Positions 3,062 to 54,465 of a DNA stretch of 61,611 nt are shown piece by piece. Source of the stretch: an uncultured Candidatus Saccharibacteria bacterium (GTDB lineage: Bacteria > Patescibacteriota > Minisyncoccia > Phycocordibacterales > JAACPR01); NCBI GenBank assembly GCA_964574865.1, contig CAZNOT010000001.1:1-61611 (forward strand), in the 5' to 3' direction. Under the pieces are notes generated by a model, which saw nothing but the letters and a program-made list of their open reading frames with translations, had not been told where the DNA came from and made no database searches. The number at the start of each line of letters is the position of its first letter. Position 1 is the first letter of the stretch. The position numbers were made by a program, and so were the translations under genes.

Positions 3062-3140
3062 GTAACGGGTAAAAAGTAGCAGGTTCGGGCCGAAATCTCG
3101 GGACTCGCTGCCGGTTAATTCTTACCGGTCAATTCGCTCA
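3049..3140. repeat. AT-rich heptamer-periodic imperfect palindrome, copy A
   Basis: It aligns over about 90 nt with 34358-34448. The minus-sense arm reads CCTGCTAC|TTTTTAC|CCGTTAC|TTGTTAC|TTCGC. The element starts at the stop codon of the upstream gene. Confidence 0.7.
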
Positions 3141-4481
3141 GCGCCCCTCCCGCCGCACGAACGTCATAATCGTCCGTAGCGCCACCGACAGGTCGAGCCA
3201 CAGCGAGCGGTTCTTCACGTAGTAGAGGTCGTAGGAGAGCTTGTTGGCGGTCGCCGCGACGTCGACGCCGTGGTGCGGATGCTCGCCGTAAATCTGCGCC
3301 CAGCCAGAGAGCCCCGGCTTGATGAGGTGCCGCACGCCGTAGTACGGAATTTCGTCCCCGTAACGCTTAACCGCCGCCGGGAACTCGGGCCGCGGACCGA
3401 CGAGCGAGACGTCGCCCCGGAGCACGTTCCAGGCCTGCGGCAGCTCGTCAATTCGGCTGCGGCGCAAGAACGCGCCGACCTTCGTGACCCGGTTCTTGGC
3501 CCCCTCCTCCTTCCACTTTCCGTTATCATCGAAGAGCATGGTCGCAAACTTCACGAGCCGCACGGTGCGGCCTCCCTGCCCTACCCGGTCCTGGAACGAG
3601 AGGAACGGCACGCGGCCTTCGAACCGGCGCGCGGCCCACACGAGAGGCGCGAGCGCGAGCGCGACCAGGAGAATCGGCAGCGCGAGCGCCACGTCGAACG
3701 CGCGCTTCGCCACGTCGTAGAGCACGTGCGGCTTGGTGCGCACGTTCTCGAGGAACCAGCCGTGGGACACGAGCGAGAGCGGCACGCGGCCGAAGACCTC
3801 CTCGTACACCTCGTGGAGCGAGACGAACGAGACGCCCGAGAACATCAGGTTGTACAGGTGCGGCAGGAGCGGCGAGATCGCGTCGTCGTGCGTGTCGACG
3901 ATGACGGTCGAGGCGCCCTGCTCGTAGATCGGGCGCACGATGTCGGCCTGCGCGTCCAGAGACGGCGCCGAGTCGAGCGCGACCGAGTGCACCACCTGGT
4001 AGCCCAGGCCCCCGCGATTGATCGCGTCGCGCAGCTCCCGCATCTCCTCGCCGCGGCCGACCAGAACGACGCCCTCGGCGGCGCGGCGTGCGGCGGCGCG
4101 GCCGTAGAGTGCCCGCCAGCCGAGGAGCGCCGCGAACGCGCACGGCAGAAAAATCGCGAGCACCGTCTTGGGCGCGATGCCGAAGTACGGCACGAAGTAG
4201 AAAAAGGCGACCGCGACGAGGCTGTTCGTCGCGAGCGCGTAGAGCAGCGTCCGCGGCTCCGAGCGGCGACGCATCGAGGCGCGGCCGTCGTAGAGCCCGG
4301 CCACGAAGAAGACCACCAGCCACGCGGCCGAGAGGATTGCGAAGGGCACGAGGTGGCGCAGGTACTCCTCCCGCCCGGGAAGCGTGAAGGTCCGAAACGC
4401 GAGAGCTAGGTACAGGGCGGCCGCGATTGCGAACAGGTCTCCCAAGACCAGGCCGAGACGCCGAGTGCGGATGGTGGTCAT
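3138..4481 (-). CDS. polyprenyl-phosphate glycosyl-phosphotransferase (bacterial sugar transferase family, WbaP-like)
   Basis: The C-terminal domain has typical sugar-transferase motifs (KRAFDVALA..., DELPQAWNVLRGDVSLVGPRP, SGWAQI), preceded by TM helices. The start was moved to the internal ATG at 4481 (MTTIRT...) because the track's N-terminal extension runs into the divergent promoter region. Confidence 0.8.
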   Translation of the reverse strand: MTTIRTRRLGLVLGDLFAIAAALYLALAFRTFTLPGREEYLRHLVPFAILSAAWLVVFFVAGLYDGRASMRRRSEPRTLLYALATNSLVAVAFFYFVPYFGIAPKTVLAIFLPCAFAALLGWRALYGRAAARRAAEGVVLVGRGEEMRELRDAINRGGLGYQVVHSVALDSAPSLDAQADIVRPIYEQGASTVIVDTHDDAISPLLPHLYNLMFSGVSFVSLHEVYEEVFGRVPLSLVSHGWFLENVRTKPHVLYDVAKRAFDVALALPILLVALALAPLVWAARRFEGRVPFLSFQDRVGQGGRTVRLVKFATMLFDDNGKWKEEGAKNRVTKVGAFLRRSRIDELPQAWNVLRGDVSLVGPRPEFPAAVKRYGDEIPYYGVRHLIKPGLSGWAQIYGEHPHHGVDVAATANKLSYDLYYVKNRSLWLDLSVALRTIMTFVRREGR

Positions 4482-4602
4482 AGGGCCGATGCTACGTAAG
4501 GCGCGAGCCCGGGGCAAGGCCGGCTGCTTCCGGGAGCTGCGAGGGGGCTTTGCGGCGGCGGGCGGCCGCGGTAGCGTTCCGTAGCTCCTGGGCGCCACCG
4601 CT

Positions 4603-5760
4603 ATGAAGATCCTCCACCTCATCACCAAATCGAACTGGGGCGGCGCCCAGCGCTGCGTTCACAGCCTCGCGGCCGACGCGGCGGCCGTCGGTCTCGACGT
4701 GACCGTCGCCCTCGGCGGGAACGGCCCGCTCGCGGAAAAACTGACCGAGGCGGGGGTGCGCGTCATTTCGATCCCGTCGCTCGGGCGAGACATCGACGCC
4801 GGGAGCGATTTTTCGGCCGTTCGCGACATCTGGCGAATCCTCGGCGAAGAGCGCCCCGACGTGCTCCACCTCCACTCGTCGAAGGCTGGCGGCATCGGCG
4901 CGCTCCTGGGGCGACTGCGCCGCGTGCCGGCCATCATCTTCACCGCGCACGGCTGGGCGTTCAACGAGCCTCGCCCCGAGTGGCAGCGGCTCCTCATCCG
5001 CCTGCTCCACGCGGCGACGGTGCTCCTCGCGCACAAGACAATCGCGGTCGCTTCGTCAATCCCTCGGCAGCTCGGCTGGGGCGGCATTCTCGGCCGACGT
5101 TTCGTCCTAATTCCGAACGGCATCGACTTCCCCGAGCTCCTGTCCCGCGAAGCGGCCCGCGCGGCGATTGGCGCCCAGTCGCCCGCCGCAGCCGCAGTAT
5201 TCAGCCGCGAGAACGCGCCGGTAATCGGCGCTCTCGCCGAGCTGCACCGCATCAAAGGCCTCGACACGCTGATCGAAGCCGCCGCCGACCTTCGCCGCCG
5301 GCTCCCCGCCCTCGATTTCGGTATCGTAGTTCTCGGCGAGGGCGAGGAACGCGGCGCGCTCGAGTCCCTGATCGAAGCGCGGGGCCTCGGCGACCGCTTC
5401 GCGCTCGCCGGTTTCGTTCGGGACGCCCCCGAGCGCATCGGCGCTTTCGACGCTTTCGCGATACCGTCCCGCTCCGAGGCGATGCCGCTCGCGCTCCTCG
5501 AAGCCGGCGCGGCCGGCCTCGCCTGCGTCGCCTCACGCGTCGGCGGCATTCCCGACGTCATCGAGAACCTCGAGACCGGGTTGCTCGTCTCGCCCGAGCG
5601 CCCGCGCGAACTAGCCGAGGCGCTGCGTCGACTCATCGAGCACGCCGCGCTCCGAGAAAAGCTCGGCGCCGCGCTCCGGTCGCGCGTGACCGAACGCTTC
5701 TCGCGCCAGAAGATGTCCACAGCCACGCTCGACCTGTACCGGAGAGTCGCCGAACGCTAG
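4603..5760 (+). CDS. family 4 glycosyltransferase (GT-B, group 1)
   Basis: The 385-aa protein has the N-terminal GGAQR motif and the C-terminal EAMPLALLEAGAAGLACVASRVGGIPDVI (E-x7-E region). It is divergent from the sugar transferase. Confidence 0.8.
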   Translation: MKILHLITKSNWGGAQRCVHSLAADAAAVGLDVTVALGGNGPLAEKLTEAGVRVISIPSLGRDIDAGSDFSAVRDIWRILGEERPDVLHLHSSKAGGIGALLGRLRRVPAIIFTAHGWAFNEPRPEWQRLLIRLLHAATVLLAHKTIAVASSIPRQLGWGGILGRRFVLIPNGIDFPELLSREAARAAIGAQSPAAAAVFSRENAPVIGALAELHRIKGLDTLIEAAADLRRRLPALDFGIVVLGEGEERGALESLIEARGLGDRFALAGFVRDAPERIGAFDAFAIPSRSEAMPLALLEAGAAGLACVASRVGGIPDVIENLETGLLVSPERPRELAEALRRLIEHAALREKLGAALRSRVTERFSRQKMSTATLDLYRRVAER

Positions 5761-5776
5761 GTGTAAACTTGGCCAG

Positions 5777-6157
5777 GTGAACTCAGAAATTGTATTCGAG
5801 GGCGACGAGTTCACGCGCGGACAGATCCGCGCCGAGGAATCCGCGCTCGTAGCTAAATCATCTGTGACAGACTTTCTGCTGCGCAAGCGTATCGTGAACA
5901 GCGAGCGTCAGGCTCGCTGGGTCGCCGGATCGATCGCCGCTCTGTCTATCGCCCTAACCGCCGCCTCTGCCAACTGGGCCACCAACGCCCTCGGCGCGCC
6001 ACCCGCGGGTAAACCGTTCGCCGAAATGACAGCGGCGGAGCGCGCCGCGCTGCCCGCCAAGCACCGAGCCTACCTAGAGAAGCTGAGCCGGGCGGCGGCT
6101 GAGGCAAAAGAGGCCGAGATCCGCAACCGCTTCCGAAACACCGACGAACTCGAATGA
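5777..6157 (+). CDS. hypothetical single-pass membrane protein
   Basis: It has a GTG start, one hydrophobic segment (WVAGSIAALSIALTAASANWA), and a 4-nt ATGA overlap with the pilin-like gene. Confidence 0.45.
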   Translation: MNSEIVFEGDEFTRGQIRAEESALVAKSSVTDFLLRKRIVNSERQARWVAGSIAALSIALTAASANWATNALGAPPAGKPFAEMTAAERAALPAKHRAYLEKLSRAAAEAKEAEIRNRFRNTDELE

Positions 6158-7650
6158 CAGAGAGCGCCAAAAAGAGCCGCCGCGACAGGCCGAATTCCGG
6201 CTTCACGCTCGTCGAACTCCTGGTGGTAATCGCCATCATTGGCGTAGTCGCCTCAATCTCGATCATCGCGACGGTGACCTACCGCGAGAAGGCCCAAGCC
6301 GCGCGCGTGGCGCAAGAGGTCGCGAACTTCCAGAAGGCGGTGGCGGTGTACTACTCGGAGAACCAGAGGTACCCAGACCCAATTAACTCCAACTACGCAG
6401 AAGCCTGCTACCAGAGCGGCACGCTGGTGAACGGCACGCCGCAAAAGTGCTGCGTTAGCCAGGAGGGCTGCACTTACGCCGGTGAGGATTACGCCACGCT
6501 AGAAGGCGGAGACTTCGCCGCCGCCGCGCGCACGCCCCGGTGGCTCACGTACCTCATCGGCGAGACAGCCCACGCTATATTCGGCGGCTCCATGCCGAGC
6601 TTCCTCACCGAAGCGCCGGCCGTCGCTGGCTACAAGGGCGTCTTCTACGAGTGCGCGTCCGCGGCCTGCACGAACGCTTACGTGTACTTCTCGGTCCCCC
6701 TGACGCTCGACAGCTGCACGCGCGGCGTCGTCCACGGCGGAGGCGATTTCTTCGGCGTCTGCGCCCAGGACATCACCGGCGGCAACATTGACGGATCGTC
6801 GGGTAGCGGGGAGACGGAAAATTGCGCCAACACGATAGATGACGACGGCGACGGCGCGACGGACTGCGAGGACGCGGACTGCGACTCGCACCCCTCGTGC
6901 GCCGGCGGCGAAAACTGCTCAACCGCGGACGACGAAGACGGAGACGGCTTCGGCCAGTGCGACGATTCGAGCTGCTTCGGCAACGCCACGTACTGCGCGA
7001 CCGAGACCGCGAGTGGCGGCTCGTGCTCGGACGGCAACGACAGCGACGGCGACGGCGCGACGGACTGCGAGGACGCGGACTGCGACTCGCACCCCTCGTG
7101 CGCCGGCGGCGAAAACTGCGGCAACGACGCCGACGACGACGGCGACGGCGCGACGGACTGCGAGGACGCGGACTGCGCCGAGACCGAACGCTGCGCTGGC
7201 GTCGAGGTTTCCTGCAACGATTCGTCGGACAACGACGGCGACGGCGCGACGGACTGCGAGGACGCGGACTGCGCCGGATACCCGTCCTGCGCGCCGCCAG
7301 AAGACTGCGGCAACGGCGCCGACGACGACGGCGACGGCGCGACGGACTGCGAGGACGCGGACTGCGAGAGCGCCTCTGGTTACTGCGACTGCGCGTGCGA
7401 GACGAACGAGTGCGGGCCGGGCAGCGCCCCCTGCTACCCGGGAGGCGACCCAATGAGCTGCGAAGACGGGAATTACGACGATCCCTGCTACCCGAACGGC
7501 GACCCGATGAACTGCGGCGAAGACCTCACCTCACCTTGCGAAACGAACGATTGCTACATTTACAGCAATGACCCGTGCGAGACGAACGAGTGCGGGCCGG
7601 GCAGCGCCCCCTGCTACCCGGGAGGCGACCCAATGAGCTGCAGCTGCTAG
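6154..7650 (+). CDS. type IV pilin-like protein with C-terminal Cys/Asp-rich repeat modules
   Basis: The N-terminus has the prepilin cleavage/methylation signature (SGFTLVELLVVIAIIGVVASI). The C-terminal half is built of repeated NxDDDGDGATDCEDADC modules and two CETNECGPGSAPCYPGGDPMSC modules. Confidence 0.8.
   Translation: MTESAKKSRRDRPNSGFTLVELLVVIAIIGVVASISIIATVTYREKAQAARVAQEVANFQKAVAVYYSENQRYPDPINSNYAEACYQSGTLVNGTPQKCCVSQEGCTYAGEDYATLEGGDFAAAARTPRWLTYLIGETAHAIFGGSMPSFLTEAPAVAGYKGVFYECASAACTNAYVYFSVPLTLDSCTRGVVHGGGDFFGVCAQDITGGNIDGSSGSGETENCANTIDDDGDGATDCEDADCDSHPSCAGGENCSTADDEDGDGFGQCDDSSCFGNATYCATETASGGSCSDGNDSDGDGATDCEDADCDSHPSCAGGENCGNDADDDGDGATDCEDADCAETERCAGVEVSCNDSSDNDGDGATDCEDADCAGYPSCAPPEDCGNGADDDGDGATDCEDADCESASGYCDCACETNECGPGSAPCYPGGDPMSCEDGNYDDPCYPNGDPMNCGEDLTSPCETNDCYIYSNDPCETNECGPGSAPCYPGGDPMSCSC
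6844..7367 (+). repeat. five nucleotide-identical 40-nt copies (two extended to 75 nt) inside the pilin-like gene
   Basis: The sequence gacggcgacggcgcgacggactgcgaggacgcggactgcg starts at about 6844, 7045, 7138, 7234 and 7328. The copies at 6844-6918 and 7045-7119 are identical over 75 nt. Confidence 0.85.
7396..7641 (+). repeat. two identical 66-nt copies (7396-7461 and 7576-7641) at the 3' end of the pilin-like gene
   Basis: The sequence tgcgagacgaacgagtgcgggccgggcagcgccccctgctacccgggaggcgacccaatgagctgc occurs twice, 180 nt apart. Confidence 0.9.
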
Positions 7651-7656
7651 CCTGAC

Positions 7657-8796
7657 CTAGCCGGTCAGGCCCGGAATCTCTCGCCCTTCAGCCTCCTCTC
7701 GCCGAATAGGCCTCGAGTATCCGCCCATCGACGAAACAATTCCCAGCATGCAAGCGGTGGCGAGCATCGAAGACCCGCCGTAAGACATCAGCGGCAACGG
7801 AATTCCCGTCACCGGAGCCACGCCCGTGTTCATGCCGACGTGAATAGCGCCGTGCGCCAAAAGGTACACGGCGACCCCCGACGCGAACAGCGTCTCAAAA
7901 TTGGTTGCCCCGCGCCGCGCCGATAAAACCACCCGCCACACCAAGACACCGTAGAGCGAGAGCAGCGTGACCGTTCCGAAGAAACCCCACTCCTCGGCGA
8001 AGGCGGCAAAGATGAAGTCGGTGTGCCGCTCGGGCAGGTAGCGTAGGCGGGACTGAGTGCCGAAGCCGATCCCCTTCCCCCAGAGCTCTCCCGAGCCGAC
8101 CGCGACGGTCGCCTGGAGCGCGTTGTAGCCGGCGCCCCGCGCATCGGCGAGCGGATCGATGAAGGTCAGAATGCGCTGCTTCTGGTAGGCGTCGAATCCG
8201 TAGAACCAGAGCAAAGTGAAGGCGGCCGCGCCCGCGACCAGAACCGCGCCCAGGTGCCGCCGTGACAGCCCCGCCACGAGCGTCATTCCGAACCAAATCG
8301 CGAAGACGATGATGGCGCCGCCGAAGTCCGGCTGCACGAGGACTAGCGCGAAAATGCCGAGGGCGTAGGCACCCGAGGCGATGATGTGGCGAAAATCCTT
8401 CACCTCCGCGTGGCGGCGCGCGAAGTATTTTGCCAGGAGGAGCATCAGCGCGAGCTTCGCGAACTCGACCGGCTGGAAACCGAACGACCCGAGCCGAAAC
8501 CAGCTCTGCGCGCCCTTGGCCACGGTCCCGACAGCGAAGAGCGCCACGAGGAGCGCGCAGACGCCGCCGTAGAGCCAGAGCGCCACGCCCGAACGACGAA
8601 AGACGCGCGCATCGATGCGCGAGAGCGCCACGAACGCGGCCGCCGAGACCGCAAGCCACGTCACCTGGCGGCTCACGAGCGCGAGGTCGCCGCCGTAGGA
8701 GGCCATGGTGAGCATCCCCGCGCCGCTGACGGCCAGGGCTGCGGCGACCATCACCCAGTCGACGCGACGGCTCCCGCTACCTAACCCGAGGGGCAT
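7657..8796 (-). CDS. ftsW: SEDS-family peptidoglycan polymerase (FtsW/RodA)
   Basis: The 379-aa polytopic protein carries typical FtsW/RodA motifs (FQPVEFAKL, QPDFGGAII, TDFIFAAFAEEWGF, PLPLMSYGGSS). Confidence 0.85.
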   Translation of the reverse strand: MPLGLGSGSRRVDWVMVAAALAVSGAGMLTMASYGGDLALVSRQVTWLAVSAAAFVALSRIDARVFRRSGVALWLYGGVCALLVALFAVGTVAKGAQSWFRLGSFGFQPVEFAKLALMLLLAKYFARRHAEVKDFRHIIASGAYALGIFALVLVQPDFGGAIIVFAIWFGMTLVAGLSRRHLGAVLVAGAAAFTLLWFYGFDAYQKQRILTFIDPLADARGAGYNALQATVAVGSGELWGKGIGFGTQSRLRYLPERHTDFIFAAFAEEWGFFGTVTLLSLYGVLVWRVVLSARRGATNFETLFASGVAVYLLAHGAIHVGMNTGVAPVTGIPLPLMSYGGSSMLATACMLGIVSSMGGYSRPIRREEAEGREIPGLTG

Positions 8797-9544
8797 CGTA
8801 AATTGGAACCACCTCGAGGCTGGTGGCGACGGCGGTCCAGGGCGCAGGCCACGTGAACGTCACCTCTCGCTCCTCGCCCGCGCCGAGGCGGTCCACCCAG
8901 GTCCGAGACGCGGCGACAGCGTTCCGGTCGATACCGTACACGAGCGCCACCACGGCGACGCGGTCGATCGGCAGCACGCCGAGGTTCTGGATCGAGGCGC
9001 GGACGCGAGGTTCGGCCCCCTGAATTTCGATACGCTCATCGACAACCGCGACCGGGCGCGACTCAGGCTCCGCCTGAACCCAAACCGGGTCGGAGAGCCA
9101 CTCGAAGCTGGCGCGGGACGCGGTACGCTCGCCGGTATCGAGGCCGAGCTCGACGACCGGCAGCACGGACTGCGGGTCGAGGTCGGCGACGCCTTCGCGC
9201 TCGGCCACCGTTACATCGTCCTGATCGTAGACGCGGACGCGGTAGCGAACGCCATCGGCGCGAGCGGCAGAATTGGAGTTTTCGACCAGCGCCACGACGT
9301 TGTACCGCCCCTTCGAGACCGGAAAAGCGCGCACCCACGAGAGGACCGGCGGGTTCACCTCGCGCGTGCAAACGAGGGCGCAGACGCCGCCGCAGTCGAC
9401 CCCACGCTCGCCGCCGTTCTGAATCCCGTCGTCGCAGCTAGGGCGCTCCCACAGAAGGTAGGTTGCCACGGCGACGACCGGGACGATGACAATCAGCGAC
9501 AGGGCCGAGAGGATTCCAAACTGGCGGCGGGAGCTCCAGGACAT
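8777..9544 (-). CDS. hypothetical membrane-anchored protein with a Cys-rich motif
   Basis: It has an N-terminal TM segment, then CDDGIQNGGERGVDCGGVCALVC, then a beta-rich region. It overlaps the ftsW start by 20 nt. Confidence 0.6.
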   Translation of the reverse strand: MSWSSRRQFGILSALSLIVIVPVVAVATYLLWERPSCDDGIQNGGERGVDCGGVCALVCTREVNPPVLSWVRAFPVSKGRYNVVALVENSNSAARADGVRYRVRVYDQDDVTVAEREGVADLDPQSVLPVVELGLDTGERTASRASFEWLSDPVWVQAEPESRPVAVVDERIEIQGAEPRVRASIQNLGVLPIDRVAVVALVYGIDRNAVAASRTWVDRLGAGEEREVTFTWPAPWTAVATSLEVVPIYDAPRVR

Positions 9545-10711: not shown

Positions 10712-10826
10712 GTACTGGCGGCTAGCTACTCTCCCGAGCAAAGCTCAGTACCATCGCCGCTACGGTGCTTAACTGCCGTGTTCGGAATGGGAACGGGTGT
10801 TTCCACCGCGCCGAGCCACCAGAACG
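10712..10826 (-). rRNA. rrf: 5S rRNA
   Basis: The reverse complement reads ...CTGGTGGCTCGGCGCGGTGGAAACACCCGTTCCCATTCCGAACACGGCAGTTAAGC...GGGAGAGTAGCTAGCCGCCAG, with terminal helix I pairing. The ends are accurate to within a few nt. Confidence 0.85.
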
Positions 10827-10954
10827 CAACATTCGATATTTTTGAAAAGTTTTTGGCGCGTGCCCTGGGCACGACCAACACTTATTCCGACGCGCGCCGT
10901 CAGATTTTTTCTGACGGAGCGATACCCATAAACGCAATTGTGATTTCCAACTTC

Positions 10955-14328
<3,374 letters not shown>

Positions 14329-14602
14329 GGAAAGCTGAAAACCACAATTGCGTTTACGGGTATCCCCCTCGCCCGCGAAAAGACCCAAAACGGGTATTCG
14401 GGCGGAGGGCATCGGTTTTTCAAGAAAGCAATCCTGGCAACCGTGTTCTCGTCCGGGACCGAGGAGAAAGCCCGAGCGGGCGCTCTCCTCGGTCCCTAAC
14501 GTCGCTGCCGCCCTTTCGGGCGGCGAGACGAGCTAAAAATAGCCCACCAAGACCTCCCTAAGGAATGCTGCGAATCTTTAACATCCGTATAGAACGCGCG
14601 GA

Positions 14603-16449: not shown

Positions 16450-17613
16450 TCAAGCGCCAGCGCGAACTGGTTTGCCGTCTGGGCGGCGGAGCGTGACAAA
16501 GTGGGTAGGTATTGCGAAAGAGGCCGACGTGGCAATAGATGCAGGAGCGGTAGTGGCGGAAGAGGGCGATGCTAAGAGCAGGTCGGAGAGGGCGTTCGGG
16601 ACATCGATGCGGCCGCCAGGAAAAAGGATGGTGTCAGGCGGAATCTCGAAGGAGTCACCGGCGGCTTCGAGGCGGAAGCCGCCGAGGTTCAGCTCGTGCG
16701 GTGAGCGGCTGAGAATGGCCACCGAGCCGTCTTCGCCCTCGGTGGCGGCGAGGCTCACCTGGGCTTCCACGACGACCACGGTGGCGCGGGAGGTCGCCGC
16801 GGCGCCTCCGGCCCCCTTCGCGTTGAGGACCACCGCGTAGGTGCCCGGGAAACGGTACGAGTGGCGGCCGTGGCGGCCTCGGGAAGCGGCGCCATCACCC
16901 CAGGACCACGAGTAGCTAGCCCGGGCGGCCCCTTCCGTCTCTGGCTCAATCGCCAGCTCTGCCCCGACGGGCACGACGCGATCGCGGCCGGCGTCGACCT
17001 CGAGCGGTACCTTGCGCCGCACGGTCGTGAGGCCACCCGTGCCGCTGTGGGCCGAGATAGCCGTGACGGTCGGCGAGGAGGACGAGGCGACCGCCGGCGG
17101 GTCTTCCCTGTCGGCGTTACGGGCGCCCGGTGTAGCCGACGCGGCGACCCACGAAACGCCCGAGCGCTGCCAAGACTTTCCGTCCGAAGCGCCAGCCGAC
17201 GAGGCCCACTCCGCCGAGGAAAACTCATCGCCATCGGAATCGACGAGCGCGATCCGCTCGCCCGAGTTCGAGAGCGAGAACGCCGAATCGAACACCGGGG
17301 CGACGTTCGGGTAATCTGCCGAGAAGCTCTCGGGCTTATCGGCCACAATCGCGTAGCCGCCAGCTGGGACAACCGCGGGAGCACCGCCGAACGGCGTAAT
17401 TTTGTGGTTCGTTCCGCCCTCGAGCAGGAACGCCGCGCCCAGATCGAAATCCGAAGCTGTATCGTTCCATATTTCGACCCACTCCCGACCGGTATCGGTG
17501 CCGGCGGGGTCGTACATGATTTCCGAGACGACCACGGCCGCGAGAGTAGGCACGGGAACGAGTGCCTGAATAAGCAAGGAAACGGCCGTTCGGGCAAAAA
17601 GTTTTTTACGCAT
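16450..17613 (-). CDS. secreted protein with lamin-tail domain(s) and a PKD-like domain
   Basis: It has a signal peptide, then an LTD-like block (VVSEIMYDPAGTDTGREWVEIWN...SLSNSGERIALVDSDG), a PKD-like block (YSWSWGDG...YRFPGTYAVVLNA), and a second LTD-like C-terminus. Confidence 0.7.
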   Translation of the reverse strand: MRKKLFARTAVSLLIQALVPVPTLAAVVVSEIMYDPAGTDTGREWVEIWNDTASDFDLGAAFLLEGGTNHKITPFGGAPAVVPAGGYAIVADKPESFSADYPNVAPVFDSAFSLSNSGERIALVDSDGDEFSSAEWASSAGASDGKSWQRSGVSWVAASATPGARNADREDPPAVASSSSPTVTAISAHSGTGGLTTVRRKVPLEVDAGRDRVVPVGAELAIEPETEGAARASYSWSWGDGAASRGRHGRHSYRFPGTYAVVLNAKGAGGAAATSRATVVVVEAQVSLAATEGEDGSVAILSRSPHELNLGGFRLEAAGDSFEIPPDTILFPGGRIDVPNALSDLLLASPSSATTAPASIATSASFAIPTHFVTLRRPDGKPVRAGA

Positions 17614-17810: not shown

Positions 17811-19691
17811 TTAGAGAGCCTGGAGGAGGAGCTTCGGAGTCTTGAACTCGGAGAGATCGATCGTGTAGAAGTTGTCAGCCGCGGCGTCGTTAGACTCATC
17901 GTCCCAGTTGAAGCCAGTGAGCTGAATCTGCTGGAAGCCATCGCCCGCCGTACCGCCAGTCTCGAGAACGACCTGCAGAGTGAACGTGCGGGTGTTGCCC
18001 TCGGAGATCTTGTAGTACGTCGAGTTGTCGCCGGTGGTCGAGCCAGAAGCCTCGACAGTGGCACCGATGATGGTCGAGGTGCCGGTCACCTCAGACGTGG
18101 TGGCCCAGAAGAAGCCTTCGCCGAGCGTACCCGGAGTCGAGCTCGAGGTCTGCTGGACGGTCTTATCGATGTACATGTCCTCGCCGCTGGCGGTGACATC
18201 GAACACGATGGTGAAGGTACCCTGGTCCTCCTCGCCCGAAGCGTCAGCGATGAAGCTCTTCGTCGCGGTCGGGTTGCCGTTGAGCTCAACCTGGACGCCG
18301 TCGACGCGAACCTCAATCTCGCCACCGTACAGGTTGTCGGAGACGGTCACGCTGTCGCCCTCGGAGTCCTCGGCATCAATGCCGGAGCCCGGAACGTAAG
18401 CGTAGAACTCGAAGCCGTTGGTGAAGTTGTCCTCCTGGGACTCGATGTCCGCGTAGACAACAACCTCAACCTCCTCGTCCTCCTCGATCGCGAAGTCGTC
18501 CTCGAGGTCCTCGAAGGAGACGGTCACGGTCGCGTAGCCAGACGGGACAGACTCGGACGAGATCTCGTCGCCGTCAACCTCGAGGCGGAGAGTCTTGATG
18601 ACATCCGCGAGAGTGTTGGTGGCAGACATGGTCGTCGAAGCGAGCTTGACGTCGAGCTCGTCGATCGTGTTGTCAGACGAGTTCGCCTCAATGGTGAAGC
18701 GCATGATCTCGACACCCTCGGTCTCGGACTCCTCGTCAGCGAAGACCGTGCGGTCCTCGTTGTCGTCGTTGTCGAGCGAGAGGTCAAGGTCACCAGCGTC
18801 CGGACCCTGGAAGGTCACGGTGCGCTCGTCGGCAGCAGCGTCCACGTCCGTGTTGTCCTCACCCTCGTAGATGTCGATGCCCTCGGCGTCAACAACGCGG
18901 AGGCCGTCGTTCGGGATCATGACGTCGAACGTCGCGCCCTCATCCTCGGTGTCGAGGCTGTTGACCGCGGTGAGCTCAACGTAGAACTTGGCGGTGTCGT
19001 CCTCATCCACAACCGCGTCGATGTTCTCGAAGCGGAAGGAGTAAAGATCGTCAGCCTCTTCGTTCCACTCGTCCTCGTCGTCGAGGCCCTCAACAGAAGC
19101 GACCTCGTCGTCCCCCATGTAGAGGACAGCGGACTCGATGTAGTCCCACGGGTCGTTAGAGTCGTTGGCATCGCCGATGGTCGCGGTCGTCGCCGAAGCG
19201 AAGACCTCGAGGCGCTCAACGCGGAGGTCGGAGCCGTCAGCCTCGAATTCGAAGCCGATGACGTTCTTCGACTCACCCTCGTCGAGGTCCTCGTCGCCAG
19301 GGTTACCGAGGACGTCGTAGTCCTTGATATCACCCTCGCCGCCGGAGAGCTCGTCGTCGCCGTTGTCGTCACCGTTGTCGTCGTCGCCGTTGTCGTCAGA
19401 CATGGCGTTGAAGTGAGCGCGGGTGATCGGACCGAAGTAACCGACCGCCGGCGCGATGCCGTTGGCAGCCTGGTACTTGGCGAGCGCGGACTTGGTAAGA
19501 GCACCGAAGTAACCCTTCGCAACGCCGGCCGGGATGACGAGAGCACCCTTGGCCTCGAGCGTGGTCTGAAGGCTGGAGACATCAGCACCCGTGGACCCGA
19601 TGGTCAGGTCGCGGGTGTAGGTCGCCGCGGAGGCGACGGTCGCCGAGAAGGCAACCGCGACGCCGACCGCAACTGCAATAAGCTTTTTCAT
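17811..19691 (-). CDS. highly acidic secreted protein with an N-terminal peptidoglycan-binding domain
   Basis: It has a signal peptide (MKKLIAVAVGVAVAFSATVASA) and a PG_binding_1-like segment (GSTGADVSSLQTTLEAKG...ALAKYQAANGI). It then has about 500 aa that are very D/E/T/S-rich, including DDNGDDDNGDDNGDDE. Confidence 0.7.
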   Translation of the reverse strand: MKKLIAVAVGVAVAFSATVASAATYTRDLTIGSTGADVSSLQTTLEAKGALVIPAGVAKGYFGALTKSALAKYQAANGIAPAVGYFGPITRAHFNAMSDDNGDDDNGDDNGDDELSGGEGDIKDYDVLGNPGDEDLDEGESKNVIGFEFEADGSDLRVERLEVFASATTATIGDANDSNDPWDYIESAVLYMGDDEVASVEGLDDEDEWNEEADDLYSFRFENIDAVVDEDDTAKFYVELTAVNSLDTEDEGATFDVMIPNDGLRVVDAEGIDIYEGEDNTDVDAAADERTVTFQGPDAGDLDLSLDNDDNEDRTVFADEESETEGVEIMRFTIEANSSDNTIDELDVKLASTTMSATNTLADVIKTLRLEVDGDEISSESVPSGYATVTVSFEDLEDDFAIEEDEEVEVVVYADIESQEDNFTNGFEFYAYVPGSGIDAEDSEGDSVTVSDNLYGGEIEVRVDGVQVELNGNPTATKSFIADASGEEDQGTFTIVFDVTASGEDMYIDKTVQQTSSSTPGTLGEGFFWATTSEVTGTSTIIGATVEASGSTTGDNSTYYKISEGNTRTFTLQVVLETGGTAGDGFQQIQLTGFNWDDESNDAAADNFYTIDLSEFKTPKLLLQAL

Positions 19692-53760: not shown

Positions 53761-54465
53761 CTACTTCAGCATCTCGTCGAGCGCCGCGCGAACCGCGTCC
53801 GGGCGGTTGCCACTGACGGTCTGGAACTGCTTGTCCGGGCCGATGATGACGGACCAGGGAGTGCCCGAGCCGCCGGTCGCCTTCGCGTTCGCGGCGTCGG
53901 CGGTCACTTCGGCGAGGGTTGCCTTGTCGGCGAGGCACTTCTCGAAGGTAGCCTTGTCGGCGCCGACCGCGACCGCGTGGGTCGAGAGGCGGGCCGTGTC
54001 GGTGCGGAGCGCGCCCTGCTCCTCGACGATGAGGTCGAGGTAGGACCAGAACGCATCGTTACCCTTCTCCTTGCCGACGCACTCGGCGGCGAGCGCCTTG
54101 GTCTGCGCGAGCGGGTGCATCGGGAGCGGGAGGTGGCGGTAGGCCCAGGCGACCTTACCCGCGTACTTCGAGTCCGCCATGATCTCCTTCAGGCCGGCGT
54201 GAAAGCGCTGGCAGAACGGGCAGTCGATGTCGGAGAACTCGACGATGGTGACCTTCGCGTCGCGGGGACCGCGGACGTAGTCGCCGGCGCCGATCGGGGT
54301 AACCGCGGACGGGTTGCCGGTCTGGGCGGCCGGAGCGGGAGCCCCGCCGACCGGAGCCGCCGGCGCGCTGCCCTGCCCGATCCAGAGGATCGCGGCGGCA
54401 ACCAGGACGCCGGCGCCGACGATGGCCGCCGGGACGCCGAGCGCGTTCTTGTCTGTCTCTGACAT
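53761..54465 (-). CDS. DsbA-family thiol:disulfide oxidoreductase (membrane-anchored)
   Basis: It has an N-terminal TM segment and a thioredoxin fold with the CPFC active site (EFSDIDCPFCQRFH). Confidence 0.8.
   Translation of the reverse strand: MSETDKNALGVPAAIVGAGVLVAAAILWIGQGSAPAAPVGGAPAPAAQTGNPSAVTPIGAGDYVRGPRDAKVTIVEFSDIDCPFCQRFHAGLKEIMADSKYAGKVAWAYRHLPLPMHPLAQTKALAAECVGKEKGNDAFWSYLDLIVEEQGALRTDTARLSTHAVAVGADKATFEKCLADKATLAEVTADAANAKATGGSGTPWSVIIGPDKQFQTVSGNRPDAVRAALDEMLK

Follow-up and report, generated by a model that had tools for sequence, protein, structure and literature searches.

The locus described here raises the question of what kind of protein results when a prepilin N-terminus is followed by a long run of Cys- and Asp-rich modules, and what such a protein could do at the cell surface. 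It was found in an uncultured Candidatus Saccharibacteria bacterium (GenBank assembly GCA_964574865.1), in a stretch of 61,611 nucleotides (contig CAZNOT010000001.1, positions 1–61,611) that was analysed as a whole and is called the window below; coordinates given without a contig refer to it. The gene is an uninterrupted open reading frame (ORF) of 498 codons at positions 6154–7650 of the plus strand, as are all parts of the gene described below. Its 498-aa product is a pilin-like protein comprising four parts: a prepilin signal, a head of about 200 aa, six Cys/Asp-rich modules of 31–36 aa each and a Cys-rich tail of 86 aa. Profile matches identify it as a prepilin-type protein carrying repeats homologous to the C-rich domain of animal teneurins, and it probably acts as a minor type IV pilin.

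The possibility that the gene is a spurious ORF or an assembly artefact was considered and rejected. Its G+C content at third codon positions is 0.86, the same level as in the neighbouring genes, and syntenic orthologues occur within the genus, in two further genomes, as well as on independent metagenome contigs.

Prepilin signal, pilin head and linker

The N-terminus reads MTESAKKSRRDRPNSG/FTLVELLVVIAIIGVVASI, where the slash marks the predicted cleavage site and NSG precedes FTLVELLVVIAIIGVVASI. The residues G-1, F+1 and E+5 are readable straight from this sequence. The segment is matched by the Pfam family N_methyl (PF07963) at residues 12–36, with 34 bits against a cut-off of 21.2 (E = 1.8e-8), and by TIGR02532 with 30.6 bits against a cut-off of 16.3, in agreement with the first-pass annotation of this DNA, which had recognised a prepilin cleavage and N-methylation segment here. 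The class III (prepilin) leader comprises residues 1–16 (6154–6201) and ends at Gly16, with the predicted cut between G16 and F17.

The leader is followed by the alpha-1 helix (residues 17–70; 6202–6363), first hydrophobic and then amphipathic. A phmmer search of the PDB aligned residues 12–78 to alpha-1 of the Geobacter pilin, GspG, gonococcal and meningococcal PilE, PilA and others; the match to the Geopilin 9EGP had E = 1.1e-10 in phmmer and 1.9e-19 in the profile search. The GspG, PilA and ComG pilin families gave sub-threshold matches, confined to the N-terminal part of the protein. The globular part of the head (residues 71–209; 6364–6780) was assigned by homology to the stand-alone pilins of about 180–200 aa found in related genera. 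Searching residues 1–223 against 1.84 billion representative proteins yielded full-length head matches mainly to proteins of about 180–215 aa, and a profile built from 15 full-length head relatives matched the same solved pilins, up to E = 1.9e-19. Eight Cys of the head are conserved within the genus. The full-length AlphaFold2 (AF2) model, computed with five pilin-fused homologues as the alignment, had a mean predicted local distance difference test (pLDDT) score of 46.6 and served for secondary-structure hints only; it contains a low-confidence helix at residues 19–70, followed by beta strands. A Gly/Ser-rich linker, GGNIDGSSGSG (residues 210–220; 6781–6813), sits where the stand-alone pilins stop.

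By these matches the 498-aa protein is a genuine prepilin-type protein. As judged from its sequence, it is also a modular pilin in the sense of Raynaud et al. (2021), with a pilin module, a linker and a module that is not specific to pili. Modular pilins have been described as a widespread class, frequent in candidate-phyla bacteria (Raynaud et al., 2021; PMC8179133). Like the modular pilins PilB and PilC of Streptococcus sanguinis, which carry a vWA module and a lectin module, respectively (PMC8179133), the protein has a small class III pilin module, a short linker and a C-terminal functional module, and it likewise belongs to a monoderm-type organism, with no outer-membrane secretin to cross. 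Unlike the single globular domain of S. sanguinis PilB and PilC, the predicted extension here comprises six Ca2+/disulfide modules of about 31 aa and an orphan Cys-rich tail. The pilus subunit had been called unusual in the first-pass annotation; grafted-module pilins are widespread, candidate phyla included (PMC8179133), and what is rare is this type of module on a pilin. A literature search found no report of a pilin with a six-module array and a Cys-rich tail. The module type and the orphan tail therefore appear to be unreported on pilins, while the grafting of modules onto pilins is established and the mechanism is not unprecedented.

The acidic repeat array and the Cys-rich tail

Past residue ~220 the composition changes sharply. 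Residues 226–430 consist of 22% Asp, 15% Gly and 13% Cys, and the 278 residues from 221 to 498 include 77 Asp and Glu versus one basic residue, a single Arg (Lys+Arg = 1). The whole protein holds 46 Cys. Motif search delimited six modules, whose first Cys are at residues 224, 255, 291, 322, 354 and 385. All six contain four Cys with the spacing 0/14/19/25–26, and five of them follow the canonical pattern C-x4-D-x-D-x-D-G-x-x-D-C-x-D-x-D-C-x5/6-C. Modules 1 (residues 221–251; 6814–6906), 4 (319–350; 7108–7203) and 6 (382–412; 7297–7389) are supported by the NF033662 profile and by the map of Ca2+ ligands, and module 3 (288–318; 7015–7107) by the same two and by its DNA similarity to module 1; module 5 (351–381; 7204–7296) gives the best match to the teneurin-4 C-rich domain. 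Module 2 (252–287; 6907–7014; DDEDGDGFGQCDDSSC), delimited by the motif search and the ligand map, is the degenerate one, with Q268 and S273 in place of two ligand Asp. The array of canonical modules with one degenerate copy that the first-pass annotation had described is thus borne out.

The NCBIfam family NF033662, “acidic double-disulfide repeat”, matches the array in five stretches with 114.2 bits against a cut-off of 41 (E = 1.5e-33), so that the pattern lies far beyond chance. With this score and with four Cys per acidic repeat of about 32 aa, the array is by sequence a member of NF033662. No paper was found in a literature search for the name of the family.

A link to proteins of solved structure is provided by the human teneurin-4 C-rich domain (7PLP), which phmmer matched with E = 1.6e-5 when the whole pilin was the query and with 4.8e-6 when the query was the repeat region. 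When 80 modules from the pilin itself and from database homologues were combined into a profile, it matched in the PDB only teneurins (teneurin-2, -3 and -4 and fly Ten-m), with E = 2e-9 for 7PLP. The AF2 model of residues 220–412, based on a 77-sequence alignment, reached a pLDDT of 82.9, and the top Foldseek match of this model in the PDB was 7plp_A (probability 0.98, root-mean-square deviation 0.7 Å over 30 columns, target template-modelling score 0.68, 57% identity over 30 residues). The Foldseek E-value of 0.08 is weak because the teneurin domain has only 30 residues. The modules and the teneurin domain share the core E-x-x-C-x-D-x-x-D-N-D-G-D-G-x-x-D-C-x-D-x-D-C-x5-C. The profile and pairwise matches indicate homology of the modules to the teneurin C-rich domain, and the array is predicted by AF2 and Foldseek to share its fold. 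The modules are best called, on sequence grounds, a two-disulfide bacterial relative of this domain, and the NF033662 repeat is evidently its prokaryotic counterpart.

The C-rich domain of teneurin-4 coordinates three Ca2+ octahedrally, through E835, D840, D843, N844, D845, D847, D851, D854 and D856 and backbone carbonyls; two sites have thrombospondin type 3 geometry and one has LDL-receptor class A geometry, and the domain contains three disulfides, 1-3, 2-5 and 4-6 (Meijer et al., 2022; PMC9058538). Binding of Ca2+ alters the compactness of teneurin-4 and raises its thermal stability (PMC9058538). In module 5 the eight acidic residues and one Asn of this ligand set are all present (9/9 side-chain positions). 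The seven-residue core of Ca2+ ligands is kept in modules 1, 3, 4, 5 and 6, and in module 2 minus two ligands; the first Glu ligand is displaced by one residue in modules 1, 2, 4 and 6 and is missing from module 3. The equivalents of teneurin Cys1, 2, 3 and 5 are present in all six modules, while those of Cys4 (C858) and Cys6 (C869) are absent, which explains the double-disulfide character of the repeat. Teneurin has a single domain of this type with three disulfides, in an animal adhesion receptor, whereas the bacterial pilin carries six tandem copies with two predicted disulfides each. Across 800 modules, ligands and Cys follow each other in a precisely conserved order and at precisely conserved distances. 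The even number of Cys and the similarity of the fold to a disulfide-bonded teneurin domain indicate that the Cys are disulfide-bonded and not free thiolates. Homology to 7PLP supports Ca2+ as the probable ligand of the array.

The first-pass annotation had likened the modules to two metal-binding repeats, MopE and thrombospondin type 3. The latter comparison stands as regards a likely calcium-dependent mechanism, given the teneurin homology: like thrombospondin type 3, the array is predicted to form a Ca2+-wrapped “wire” without secondary structure, in which DxDxDGxxDxxD loops are stabilised by disulfides. It differs from TSP_3 (PF02412) in Cys spacing and repeat length. Neither TSP_3 nor Cu-binding_MopE (PF11617) was matched in Pfam searches with the whole protein at E≤1 or with the repeat region and tail at E≤10, and membership in both families was rejected.

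Most of the 431 significant homologues of the repeat belong to Myxococcota, Planctomycetota and similar groups. They are mostly surface lipoproteins and secreted enzymes, and a typical homologue contains 5–13 repeats behind a lipoprotein-type or Sec signal, often together with a protease, PPC, LTD or DUF4215 domain. The pilin has the same repeat as these NF033662 proteins, but a prepilin N-terminus instead of their usual signals. Within the phylum to which the window belongs (Patescibacteria), the repeat was detected in 50 of 401 sampled genomes, and none of the six loci inspected encoded a pilin. Fusions of the repeat to a pilin are rare, with about six cases (P0001, P0002, P0003, P0005, P0038 and P0121); a search of genome contigs for related loci added no fused relatives, its matches being confined to generic pilin N-termini of many different phyla.

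The array is followed by the Cys-rich tail, comprising residues 413–498 and the stop codon (7390–7650). Its 86 residues hold 14 Cys, distributed over short units of the types CETNxC and CYPxGDPMxC; two copies of the unit CETNECGPGSAPCYPGGDPMSC are present, and CETNDC and CYPNGDPMNC each form one additional, third unit. The tail has no Pfam match at E≤10 and no PDB match, and a search of residues 411–498 against 5.8 billion proteins returned only orthologues from the same genus. In view of these results the tail is regarded as an orphan, specific to the genus.

The extension shows sequence signs of recent duplication within the gene. Modules 1 and 3 share 92% DNA identity over 106 nt, and the two copies of the tail unit share 93% over 82 nt, with the differences confined to the first dozen bases. 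Its composition also varies between orthologues, from six modules and a short tail here to at least five modules in the G002-type protein and one module with a much longer tail in the G001-type protein. Within the G001-type (sister-species) cluster, at ≥95% identity, the head is invariant and whole tail units (CETNTC / CYNPASNPDPMxC) are gained or lost in frame, giving forms of 350, 368, 375, 399 and 436 aa (P0121, P0280, P0282, P0283 and P0284). These duplications and the variation in unit number would fit a surface-exposed, fast-evolving contact module.

Gene neighbourhood, origin of the fusion and pilus genes

A GT4 glycosyltransferase (4603–5760, plus strand; Pfam Glycos_transf_1 / Glyco_transf_4) is encoded upstream of the pilin and ends 16 nt before an ORF for a conserved single-pass membrane protein of 126 aa (5777–6157, plus strand), which matches no family and whose stop codon overlaps the start of the pilin gene (ATGA). 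On the other side, an FtsW/RodA gene is convergent to the pilin gene and ends 6 nt past its stop. A divergent priming sugar transferase (Bac_transf, from the annotation of neighbouring genes) lies at 3138–4628 on the minus strand. A scan of positions 4300–8900 found no sigma-70-like promoter, so that the limits of the transcription unit are inferred from gene spacing only.

The order GT4, small ORF, pilin and oppositely oriented FtsW is kept in both other genomes of the genus, as it is on an independent JGI contig. The 126-aa ORF is kept upstream of the pilin at loci L022 and L024 (62%), L025 (35%) and L030 (29%), and the adjacency of GT4 and pilin is common to several genera (L026, L028 and L030). 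In at least two other genera of the family (L026 and L028), a homologue of the GT4 gene is followed by a pilin of 180–203 aa that ends where the linker begins here. The repeat extension on the pilin was found in genus g1 and a few metagenome proteins only. The occurrence of stand-alone orthologous pilins after the same GT4 in other genera indicates that the array and the tail were grafted onto an existing pilin; the grafting is therefore placed, from the sequence comparisons, in or near the ancestor of genus g1. The adjacency of the GT4 and pilin genes also hints at glycosylation of the pilin or at a shared envelope function.

The assembly, with an estimated completeness of 91%, has 58 contigs that total 0.62 Mb. 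The named database matches to the serine hydroxymethyltransferase encoded in the window all belong to Patescibacteria/Paceibacterota lineages. As stated in the first-pass annotation, no PilB, PilC, PilT or PilD is encoded in the window; the search of the whole genome that it proposed found them elsewhere. A single prepilin peptidase (Peptidase_A24, 46 bits) is encoded on contig C7, and the genome contains four T2SSE ATPases, of which three are PilB-like and one PilT-like, and two T2SSF (PilC) proteins. These numbers imply at least two type IV filament systems. The PilB, PilT and PilC homologues are spread over contigs C2, C3, C4 and C7. Among six further N_methyl sites in the genome, one belongs to a 139-aa pilin adjoining the peptidase, which is likely a major pilin. 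Another modular pilin, of 594 aa and with a CarboxypepD_reg domain, is encoded on contig C3.

The genome also encodes a second acidic-repeat protein of about 1,000 aa with 94 Cys, which combines at least two to three NF033662-like modules with a PG_binding_1 domain (G000 C3:30753-33767 = L019:11754-14768, minus strand). It is located directly upstream of a PilB/PilC pair on the same contig, and a run of N falls within the part that encodes its N-terminal region.

Enzymes for disulfide formation are present as well. An exported DsbA-like thioredoxin is encoded in the window (53764–54465, minus strand; Pfam Thioredoxin_4, E = 2.5e-21, and DSBA, E = 4.1e-12), and a VKOR homologue at C4:2807-3184, inside an open frame of 515 aa. 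The presence of both makes extracytoplasmic disulfide formation plausible, and the DsbA-like protein is a plausible candidate oxidase for the 46-Cys pilin. That a 0.6-Mb genome encodes this pair is in keeping with a large commitment to surface proteins rich in disulfides.

Many genes of the window concern the envelope and the cell surface. Predicted surface proteins include one of 387 aa with LTD and PKD domains (16450–17613, minus strand) and one of 626 aa with a PG_binding_1 domain (17811–19691, minus strand), both recognised by domain matches. The 23S rRNA gene (10952–14330, minus strand) measures 3,379 nt versus the 2,925 positions of the model and so carries insertions; it is followed by the 5S rRNA gene (10713–10823). 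No 16S rRNA or tRNA genes were found within the window.

Possible roles of the modular pilin

The protein is, on balance, probably a modular minor type IV pilin of a Paceibacteria-type (Patescibacteria/CPR) bacterium, in which an acidic stalk rigidified by Ca2+ displays an orphan tip module. The prepilin would enter the membrane and be cleaved after Gly16 by the A24 peptidase, and the 46 Cys would be oxidised outside the cell by the DsbA/VKOR pair. Each module would be locked by two disulfides (C1-C3 and C2-C4) and could bind as many as two or three Ca2+ with its DxDxDGxxDxxD/ExxC ligands; since a hydrophobic core is all but lacking, the array would fold only if oxidised and loaded with Ca2+. 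The six modules would then form a stiff, protease-resistant, anionic stalk of the beads-on-a-string type, with a net charge of about -60, keeping the genus-specific Cys-rich tail, a putative orphan Cys-knot, clear of the pilin head. An extension of 278 residues is too bulky for the body of the filament, which makes incorporation at the tip or at sparse positions, as a minor pilin, most likely. Modular pilins of monoderm bacteria have been argued to occupy the tip or to occur at low frequency (PMC8179133). The likely output would be attachment to a host cell or to a surface or substrate, with binding by the tail, the Ca2+-loaded repeats or both.

Several observations weigh against this interpretation. 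The orphan pilin gene adjoins genes for envelope glycans and cell division, outside any pilus cluster. The fold of the pilin head is only weakly modelled, as noted above for the full-length prediction. In homologues that are not pilins, the repeats separate a lipoprotein signal from enzymes or other domains, which speaks for a generic spacer and not for binding of a specific ligand. The modules lack the third disulfide of teneurin and their first acidic ligand is mostly one residue nearer to Cys1, so that, by this alignment, the third Ca2+ site may be missing. The variation in the number of tail units could partly reflect collapse of repeats in short-read assemblies.

There is another explanation, which is unlikely, though less so than those below: the protein would be no pilus subunit but a surface or wall protein anchored by its pilin signal, with a Ca2+-loaded array placed in the envelope, where it could, for example, form bridges to glycopolymers of the wall that the adjacent sugar transferases produce. 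Membrane insertion and anchoring, or release after cleavage, would then be the only function of the class III signal and the hydrophobic helix. The location next to Bac_transf, GT4 and FtsW/RodA, the persistence of the GT4–pilin adjacency across genera, the many pilin-like ORFs in the genomes of these bacteria and the peptidoglycan-binding domain of the second repeat protein are all consistent with such a role. However, the head is homologous to ordinary pilins of about 200 aa and carries the full assembly signature, including E+5; the genome has a complete pilus machinery, and incorporation into pili is known for orphan minor pilins and for modular ones (PMC8179133).

A role of the array as a Ca2+ sensor that regulates pilus dynamics appears improbable. 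Occupancy of the array could switch the tip pilin and so tune extension or retraction, by analogy with the Ca2+ site of PilY1 in Pseudomonas. Multiple Ca2+ sites are predicted, teneurin-4 changes its compactness and stability with Ca2+, and a PilT-like retraction ATPase is available in the genome. Yet six dense tandem sites look structural, like the wires of thrombospondin type 3, and not like a switch, and unrelated bacteria have the same repeats joined to enzymes, proteases among them.

The idea put forward in the first-pass annotation, a fibre binding copper or another transition metal through MopE-type motifs, is close to refuted. Its source is traceable to Tucker et al. (2012; PMC3278476), who aligned the Cys-rich core of teneurins to the PF11617 consensus (C.DGVDNNCDGQVD) and termed it a Cu-binding motif. 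This consensus does resemble the core of the modules, and PF11617 is also carried by a few homologues of the repeat (P0075 and P0094). The likeness of the pilin to MopE is superficial, limited to the core C-x-D-G-x-D-N-D-x-D-G, and the hmmscan check proposed for PF11617 gave no match, as described above. The copper site of MopE is formed by His132, His203 and kynurenine130, the latter derived from Trp (PMC3423442), whereas the repeats and tail (residues 221–498) contain two His and no Trp, and these MopE ligands are not present there. The later crystal structure of teneurin contained Ca2+ (PMC9058538). Hard oxygen donors, an even Cys count (four per module, 46 in total) in keeping with disulfides, a Ca2+-binding solved homologue and the lack of MopE matches and ligands together favour Ca2+. 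A polyanionic store of cations or a mineral-nucleating surface, buffering bulk Ca2+ or Mg2+ with no specific partner, would suit the excess of acidic residues, but is just as hard to sustain, because the precise spacing of ligands and Cys points to a defined fold and not to a generic polyanion, and because a single gene copy on a pilin would make a poor store.

Two further readings go beyond the modular minor pilin itself and, taken jointly, are rather doubtful. According to the first, the protein may be a host-recognition pilin of episymbiotic Paceibacteria, with a Ca2+-dependent stalk and a hypervariable, disulfide-knotted tip whose number of units varies between strains and tracks host surfaces. 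According to the second, the teneurin C-rich domain may derive from the bacterial NF033662 repeat and not from a diatom or algal enzyme. The origin of this domain has been ascribed to a diatom or algal gene or enzyme in a work that does not mention the bacterial repeat (PMC3278476), and bacterial teneurins were treated in a 2026 paper that says nothing of a link to NF033662. The present comparison ties the NF033662 family to the teneurin C-rich domain; if the second reading is true, the bacterial ancestry of teneurins would extend to this domain.

Among modular pilins the protein adds one more architecture, with its function inferred. The analysis also gives the NF033662 family a template for its structure and points to Ca2+ as its likely ligand; the repeat occurs in roughly one of every eight Patescibacteria genomes sampled, and many surface proteins of Myxococcota contain it. 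The lifestyle attributed to Patescibacteria is attachment to other microbes, in which type IV pili have been implicated. Outside Saccharibacteria, little has been described of what the tips of these pili present. The pilin described here offers a concrete candidate for such a contact organ, in which the ordinary pilin head of the family bears a recently grafted, predicted Ca2+-binding extension with a solved eukaryotic homologue.

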